Positions 28,929 through 29,475 of a stretch of 64,000 nucleotides of DNA are shown piece after piece. Origin of the DNA: Eledone cirrhosa (taxonomy: Eukaryota). Made by a program: the position numbers and the translations under genes. Each line of letters opens with the position of its first letter. Within the stretch, counting starts at the first letter, position 1. The stretch lies in assembly GCA_964016885.1 (NCBI GenBank), contig OZ024752.1, positions 14,446,001-14,510,000 of the forward strand. Reading direction: 5' to 3'. The notes under the pieces were generated by a model. It was not told the DNA's origin and did not search any database. It saw nothing but the letters and a program-made list of their open reading frames with translations.

Positions 28929-29475
28929 TCTTTTCATTCGAAGAATATAAAATTCTTGAATTTAAATTACGAACTAGCGCTATCCAAAACTGTTCCCGAG
29001 ATGAGAGTAAATGAAGCGGAATCAATTTTTTCAAGGGCCGAAAGTAAAGATAGAGGCAGAGGGAGGTATAGTAAGTAACTATAGTAAGTAAAGTCAATTT
29101 TTTAAAATTTATTTTGAAACTTTTTCATTATTTGCTAAAGCTGATTATATATGTTCTGGCTCGTTAATTTATTAACCTGCCATTGAACCACATTGGCATA
29201 TGGTTGGACAATACATGTGTCCCTTAGCGCTTTGTGCGTGTAGGAACACATATCCTATTATTACACCCCTCCTCTATGTTGAGAAAAAATTTGGTCGTTC
29301 CGACTGCTGCTAGTGATAGTGGTGGCCGATTGACCTACCTCCCTCTGCTTCTATCTTTACTTTCGGCCCTTGACAAAATTGATTCCACTTCATTTACTCT
29401 CATCTCGGGAACAGTTTTGGATAGTGCTAGTTCATAATTTAAATTCAAGAATTTTATATTCTTCGAATGAAAAGA

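Follow-up and report, generated by a model that had tools for sequence, protein, structure and literature searches.

Genomic copies of a tandem 484-nt element of Eledone cirrhosa carry an excess of 5' ends just past the predicted cut of the hammerhead ribozyme found in each unit. This family-level footprint is weak and real, and cleavage of the RNA template is its likely cause, with a minority of copies made from cut RNA. What was observed directly is a set of 3' ends fixed at unit positions +81 and +190, pairing of copies on opposite strands, an excess of 5' ends at -2 to +12, and read-through of the cut site in ~91% of passages. The element was encountered in a window of 64,000 nt (contig OZ024752.1 of GCA_964016885.1, positions 14,446,001 to 14,510,000, forward strand), and coordinates below refer to this whole stretch unless a locus is named. 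Units were numbered with +1 as the base directly 3' of the predicted hammerhead cut.

The unit was 484 nt long and tandemly arranged, with a GC content of ~0.3 and one type I hammerhead each. No ORF of at least 150 aa was present over the element, which was classed as non-coding for that reason. In each unit the catalytic core and the cleavage triplet were conserved and the motif followed type I order, with stem I of 5 bp, stem II of 6 bp around a 44-nt insert and stem III of 4 bp; the three stems and the G10.1-C11.1 pair expected of a type I hammerhead were both present. Pairing was scored over 43 copies picked for diversity, in which 92.8% of cells were paired and 6/20 pairs showed two-sided changes. 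The covariation exceeded that of all shuffles (0/500) and all slid controls; the signal came mostly from stem II and from few subfamily changes, so that it represents few independent observations. The motif had no Rfam match at the gathering score, and the hammerhead, stem I included, was not recovered when the motif was folded for minimum free energy (z -1.1 to -1.8). The 484-nt unit carries a type I hammerhead with covarying stems, for which self-cleavage is predicted. In its five commonest variants stem III was a perfect or near palindrome, loop mismatches aside, with a weak fold on its own (-0.9 to -2.0 kcal/mol) and a strong one as a dimer (-13.6 to -19.9). It resembles the small palindromic stem III of the weak, dimer-acting hammerheads described in animal Penelope elements, as far as the accessible parts of PMC4209133 describe them.

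In the window, two arms of the unit were joined head to head on opposite strands. The left arm (28176-29068, minus strand) comprised ~1.85 units, with its 5' end at +265 and its 3' end at ~+187-190, the +190 start site. The right arm (29075-29635, plus strand) comprised 1.16 units and ran from +4, with the first 3 nt after the predicted cut missing, to ~+81, the other start site; its last 7 nt were microhomology with TA. The initial annotation had placed the start of the plus-strand arm 3-4 nt past the predicted cut, and this was borne out, since 29075 corresponds to +4 when the cut falls after 29554 in the hammerhead copy. It had also described a 12-nt duplication at the joint and a merging of both 3' ends into (TA)n, and both were confirmed. 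The 12-mer at 29067-29078 is an extra copy of unit +9 to +20 on the plus strand and repeats 29080-29091 with a period of 13. The 3' ends of both arms run into TA repeats at the 28176 and 29635 sides, the inferred target consisting of a short (TA)n at 28165-28178 and a second at 29629-29701. Only 6 nt (29069-29074) lay outside both arms at the joint, flanked by microhomologies of 2 nt (left) and 4 nt (right). As regards the target-site duplication of more than 4 bp that counts, when present, among the features of retrozymes, both insertion ends lie within (TA)n. No public contig spanning the 29075 joint was found.

Three further copies of the cut site in the same insertion were read through, each in a hammerhead with one stem I mismatch. 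One lay on the plus strand at 29476-29559 (core from 29481; predicted cut between 29554 and 29555) and two on the minus strand, at 28845-28928 (predicted cut between 28850 and 28849; private G-to-A change at +4 in stem I) and at 28361-28444 (predicted cut between 28366 and 28365).

Copies were collected across the genome by their 3' ends, which clustered at two sites, +81 and +190, separated by 109 nt. Exact patterns counted 86 ends at +81, 65 at +190, and 1,355 at +81 in sister subfamilies. A genome-wide DNA search (3.0 Gb) returned 2,784 candidates and 40 of these were scored; this search favours full units and was left out of the set definition for statistics. Arms were chosen by 3' ends only, giving set A (+81 ends; 76 arms after de-duplication of 86), set B (+190 ends; 61 of 65 arms) and set C (sister-subfamily +81 ends; 92 arms at 90 loci, all on a single contig and drawn from the first 100 of 1,355 listed matches). 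The addition of 72 partner arms gave a total of 297 arms of at least 29 nt. Arms at locus edges or beside N were left out, as were L146 (a probable duplicate of L129), L090, L097 and L208 (an amplified array) and 4 arms shorter than 29 nt.

An inverted 5'-truncated neighbour was present beside 33/76, 49/61 and 32/92 arms of sets A, B and C, respectively. Among 99 head-to-head pairs, 84 combined a +81 with a +190 end, 3 were +81/+81, none was +190/+190 and 12 had another end. These 84 pairs give good support to the initial annotation's proposal that both sides of a (TA)n break served as primers. The joints showed a microhomology overlap in 50 pairs, were blunt in 19 and bore insertions in 30. 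L1 twin priming also yields head-to-head inversions from two primers at one target, and there the first arm ends at the start of the second; in the pairs described here the arms overlap on the template and met at the second primer site in only 2/84 and 1/84 cases.

Several individual loci were observed alongside these sets. Tandem arrays of at least 9 and at least 10 units were present at G000:C1:82116737-82120601 and C1:149205294-149209661, and are possible source loci. L097, L098 and L208 (G000:C3:88.917-88.940 Mb) represent one insertion (5' end +278) amplified repeatedly with its flank, and since their arms measure 772 or 1,256 nt, units were gained or lost after insertion. At L030 (G000:C1:346.38 Mb) a 3.5-unit arm carried 14 rare variants common to consecutive units, a pattern that a circular or homogenised template would be expected to give. 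Short pieces spanning approximately -4 to +14 were reiterated in tandem at a 5' end of -2 at L215 (G000:C9:28446569), G000:C4:374309530 and 374310613, and resemble the slip-back at the 29067-29078 joint.

The distribution of 5' ends was analyzed as a hazard (stops per base at risk). Over the 297 arms, 26 ends fell at -2 to +12 against 12.3 expected (HR 2.2, p 3e-4). The initial annotation had called for a histogram of 5' endpoints, with a uniform distribution counting against its proposal; the distribution obtained was ~2x enriched just past the cut, and -2 to +12 was the top region of the unit (p 0.039 after minimum-p scan correction). A scan correction on raw hazards (p 0.38) favours low-exposure windows and was replaced by the minimum-p scan. 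Immediately upstream, at -16 to -3, 6 ends were found against 11.6 expected, and at +13 to +40 there were 40 against 27.4 (HR 1.5), so that the excess trails downstream as a broad peak. It held with length stratification (p 5e-5), after adjustment for AT content and TA starts (HR 2.0), and with the 29075 locus removed (25 against 12.2 expected, p 7e-4).

Observed and expected ends at -2 to +12 were 12 and 3.3 in set A, 5 and 2.0 in set B, 5 and 4.2 in set C, and 4 and 2.8 among partner arms, where the HR of 1.4 was not significant. By reference sequence, the HR was 2.9 for A, 2.8 for B and 0.8 for C. In the young set, 12/92 passages stopped at -2 to +12 (HR 4.2), with none just upstream against 3.0 expected; a sample of large older subfamilies showed no excess at -2 to +12 (5/100, HR 1.2). 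The cut site was read through in 273/299 passages (~91%). Stops made up 16/242 first passages and 10/53 second passages, with a background hazard that is also higher at second-passage length. The run-off of reverse transcriptase from a self-cleaved 5' end, as first proposed, therefore stands in part: the ~2x enrichment just past the cut agrees with it, and the ~91% read-through and lack of excess in the older sample make it a minority route. The 12-nt slippage duplication did not serve as a mark of cut-end joints, slip-back duplications being atypical near the site and not enriched among ends close to the cut (1/26 vs 3/275).

Junctions were then counted over the whole genome. Patterns that exclude uninterrupted units gave 94 matches downstream of the cut and 96 upstream, which were sorted by eye; 78 were kept on each side, and 16/94 and 18/96 were dropped as internal deletions, duplications, a divergent subfamily or unrelated sequence. 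The downstream count leaves out one further subfamily. By eye, seven copies among the downstream matches had small internal deletions just past the cut or in stem III, and seven belonged to a divergent subfamily with other bases around the cut; examples of these kinds are G000:C1:324538026, C5:96435835 and C3:308570174. Per anchor, junctions amounted to 78/1,501 downstream and 78/3,339 upstream, or 2.1-2.4x per base, although the upstream anchor takes in more subfamilies and arrays and a like-for-like comparison by eye gave ~1.5x for older types.

The downstream junctions lay at -2 (6), -1 (3), +1 (6), +2 (1), +4 (2), +5 (3), +7 (4), +8 (5), +9/10 (29), +11 (3), +12 (5) and +13 (11). Ends compatible with an exact +1 numbered 15. 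The upstream rate predicts 6.4-7.3 (p 0.002-0.008); the unit-wide mean predicts 9.6, and the difference from it was borderline (p 0.07). The peak at +9/10 lies on TA microhomology. Direct joins to a TA run occurred there in 18/1,501 cases, compared with 4/1,476 at one control site with longer TA microhomology (p 0.004), so that, on this single control site, TA microhomology alone is insufficient for the excess. By analogy with what the accessible text of PMC3774820 proposes for R2, the +9/10 peak fits cDNA synthesis as far as +1 followed by trimming back to the closest microhomology.

It is improbable, in our estimate, that the excess is real and arises by a route other than cleavage, either by stalling of reverse transcriptase at a folded, possibly dimeric, hammerhead or by RNA starts near +1 from an internal promoter. 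Stalling would draw on the strong dimerisation of the stem III variants, and an intermolecular stem III ends at -2, which predicts the same coordinates; yet in the rest of the unit the stop rate did not vary with predicted helix probability, there was no general stall, and the 3' edge of stem I had no excess (3 ends at +5 and none at +6 of 78). Promoter-like motifs are reported in Penelope repeats in the accessible parts of PMC3846280 and favour an internal start, but a start site exactly at the cut would be a coincidence. Template cleavage, these two origins and the chance truncation considered next for the 29075 joint are inseparable by sequence alone.

The joint at 29075 proves little on its own. 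With a probability clearly below even, but appreciable, it could be a random 5' truncation joined by microhomology that lies close to the cut by chance, both arms having been copied from one uncut multi-unit RNA. The chance that a given arm ends within the 14-nt interval is ~4%, rising to ~8% when either of two arms may do so. Position +4 formed no peak in the genome-wide junctions sorted by eye (2/78), and the older sample lacked an excess. Both arms carried variants at +69 (2/170) and +364 (2/119) that were absent from every other young arm, and also had a variant at +407 in common. All three variants lay in the unit preceding the 3'-end unit, in register, and neighbouring units were without them. 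Because the left arm crosses the cut site where the right arm stops, a single already-cut RNA cannot have templated both arms. The first reading of the joint as a cleavage footprint is weakened at this locus by the rarity of +4 ends and by the passage of a left arm with the same private variants across the site. The left arm also has an A at +4, and if the template had A there, stem I of its ribozyme would be mismatched and the G at 29075 would derive from the duplicated piece.

Against chance truncation, the family excess persists without the 29075 locus and after adjustment for length, AT content and TA microhomology, and approximately three quarters of the ends at -2 to +12 are excess in the young subfamily. 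The common variants could likewise come from two transcripts of one source array or from later gene conversion between the arms. Judged from the arrangement of the variants, a template in the form of a dimer circle or a linear multimer would produce private changes in register, as would a pair of transcripts from one source array; a monomer circle would do so only with later gene conversion. A register test of circular against linear templates in 34 young pairs gave differences of 0.021 in register, 0.022 shifted, 0.022 within an arm and 0.031 between loci. When the shared variants are weighed against the approximately fourfold excess in the subfamily, the odds that the right arm stopped at the end of a cut RNA are about even.

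The mechanism that we consider slightly favored is that uncut or re-joined RNA, copied straight through, is the usual template of a Penelope-type enzyme, and that at times the enzyme runs to the end of a self-cleaved linear RNA, which would leave approximately twice as many ends past the cut. A Penelope RT/GIY-YIG protein would cut both strands of (TA)n, each DNA end would prime at one of the two internal RNA sites, +81 or +190, and 1-4 nt of microhomology would then link the two cDNAs, or link one of them to the target. A cDNA ending at +1 would often be trimmed back to the nearest TA-like microhomology at +9/+10. At the 29075 locus, the right cDNA would have halted at +4 or +5 and realigned 13 nt back through a 4-nt repeat, and after 6-8 nt of further copying would have been joined to the left arm. 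The fuller statement is evenly poised between true and false in our judgement: that in vivo cutting by the hammerhead has left its record in the genomic copies of a Penelope-mobilised retrozyme, ~4-10% of passages stopping at the end of cut RNA and the rest using uncut or circular RNA, while a dimeric enzyme primes both ends of the (TA)n break, at +81 and +190, on RNA of a single source.

An autonomous partner for the 484-nt family was sought in the Penelope ORF of the window, a hammerhead scan of 58-64 kb, neighbouring Penelope copies and 247 loci, and none was found. The window ORF (60706-63033, minus strand) is a 775-aa open frame with RVT_1 and GIY-YIG matches (RVT_1 below the curated cut-off) and a Zn-finger-like linker; it is Penelope-like, which we take to be of the Neptune type, and had no DNA match to the 484-nt unit. 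No hammerhead was detected at 58-64 kb or in the neighbouring Penelope copies. Pieces of Penelope ORFs occurred at 8/247 loci (9 records, E<1e-4) and stood apart from the arms in the 6 examined. Penelope-like coding copies with 88% identity between them, at L181 and L209, lay in TA runs adjoining retrozyme arms, and are apparently separate insertions into the same target type. Elsewhere in the window, broken LINE-like reverse transcriptase frames were identified by eye at 15308-16549 (+), 51313-52905 (+) and 56162-59105 (-); the third of these included a segment resembling an AP endonuclease. Very long (TA)n arrays (3-8 kb), degenerate in sequence, spanned 10210-15245, 17087-20345 and 39799-48147, some switching G/C strand bias, and minisatellites were present at 32539-32946 (29 nt, 14 copies) and 34779-35131 (22 nt, 16 copies).

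In the accessible parts of PMC7229834 and 10.64898/2026.07.22.740005, metazoan non-LTR retrozymes are, like this family, dispersed non-coding AT-rich tandem units with one type I hammerhead, and mobilisation by Penelope elements is proposed for them. On that description, the 484-nt element is a non-coding retrozyme and joins the animal non-LTR retrozymes (PMC7229834; 10.64898/2026.07.22.740005). At 484 nt it is slightly longer than the 150-450 nt given for metazoan units, and it is known here from DNA, whereas linear and circular monomer RNAs count among the features of such retrozymes. For fixed 3' ends, head-to-head pairing and 5'-end statistics, no description was found in the accessible parts of those two papers. 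In a mainly open-access literature, supplements aside, no account was found of retrozyme or Penelope copies whose 5' ends accumulate at the hammerhead cut.

Endonuclease-positive Penelope-like elements share with this family an inverted 5'-truncated copy beside the 5' end and microsatellite targets (PMC8557442, PMC3846280, as far as accessible). Autonomous Penelope-like elements encode an RT and GIY-YIG endonuclease ORF, whereas the 484-nt family has no ORF. According to the portions of PMC11167929 available, purified Penelope protein uses two internal RT start sites (the 'tail') and cuts both strands in AT-rich DNA; start sites in Penelope-like elements lie 30-40 nt apart, compared with 109 nt here, where they are paired one per arm. 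The same text reports that the hammerhead of an anole element is dispensable in vitro and that no RNA-seq reads ended at its cut (PMC11167929). That element gave no sign of in vivo cleavage, whereas the 484-nt family shows a weak genomic one. The footprint bears on the role of hammerheads in Penelope-like elements. A modest excess with ~90% read-through would reconcile the views, in that germ-line cleavage occurs and cut linear RNA is a minor template; if true, this would for the first time measure the cleavage frequency of a Penelope-type template at genome scale. The footprint is weak yet testable, with exact RNA ends and two priming sites named, and it defines no new kind of system. The nearest parallel is R2 with its HDV-like ribozyme, in which, as far as the accessible text goes, the cut shapes the genomic 5' junctions, and variable junctions are put down to chance microhomology where the cut is the element end (PMC3774820). 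In R2 the cut sets the full-length 5' end, whereas in the 484-nt family, a hammerhead-bearing unit in tandem or circular form, a few percent of passages would be explained by it.
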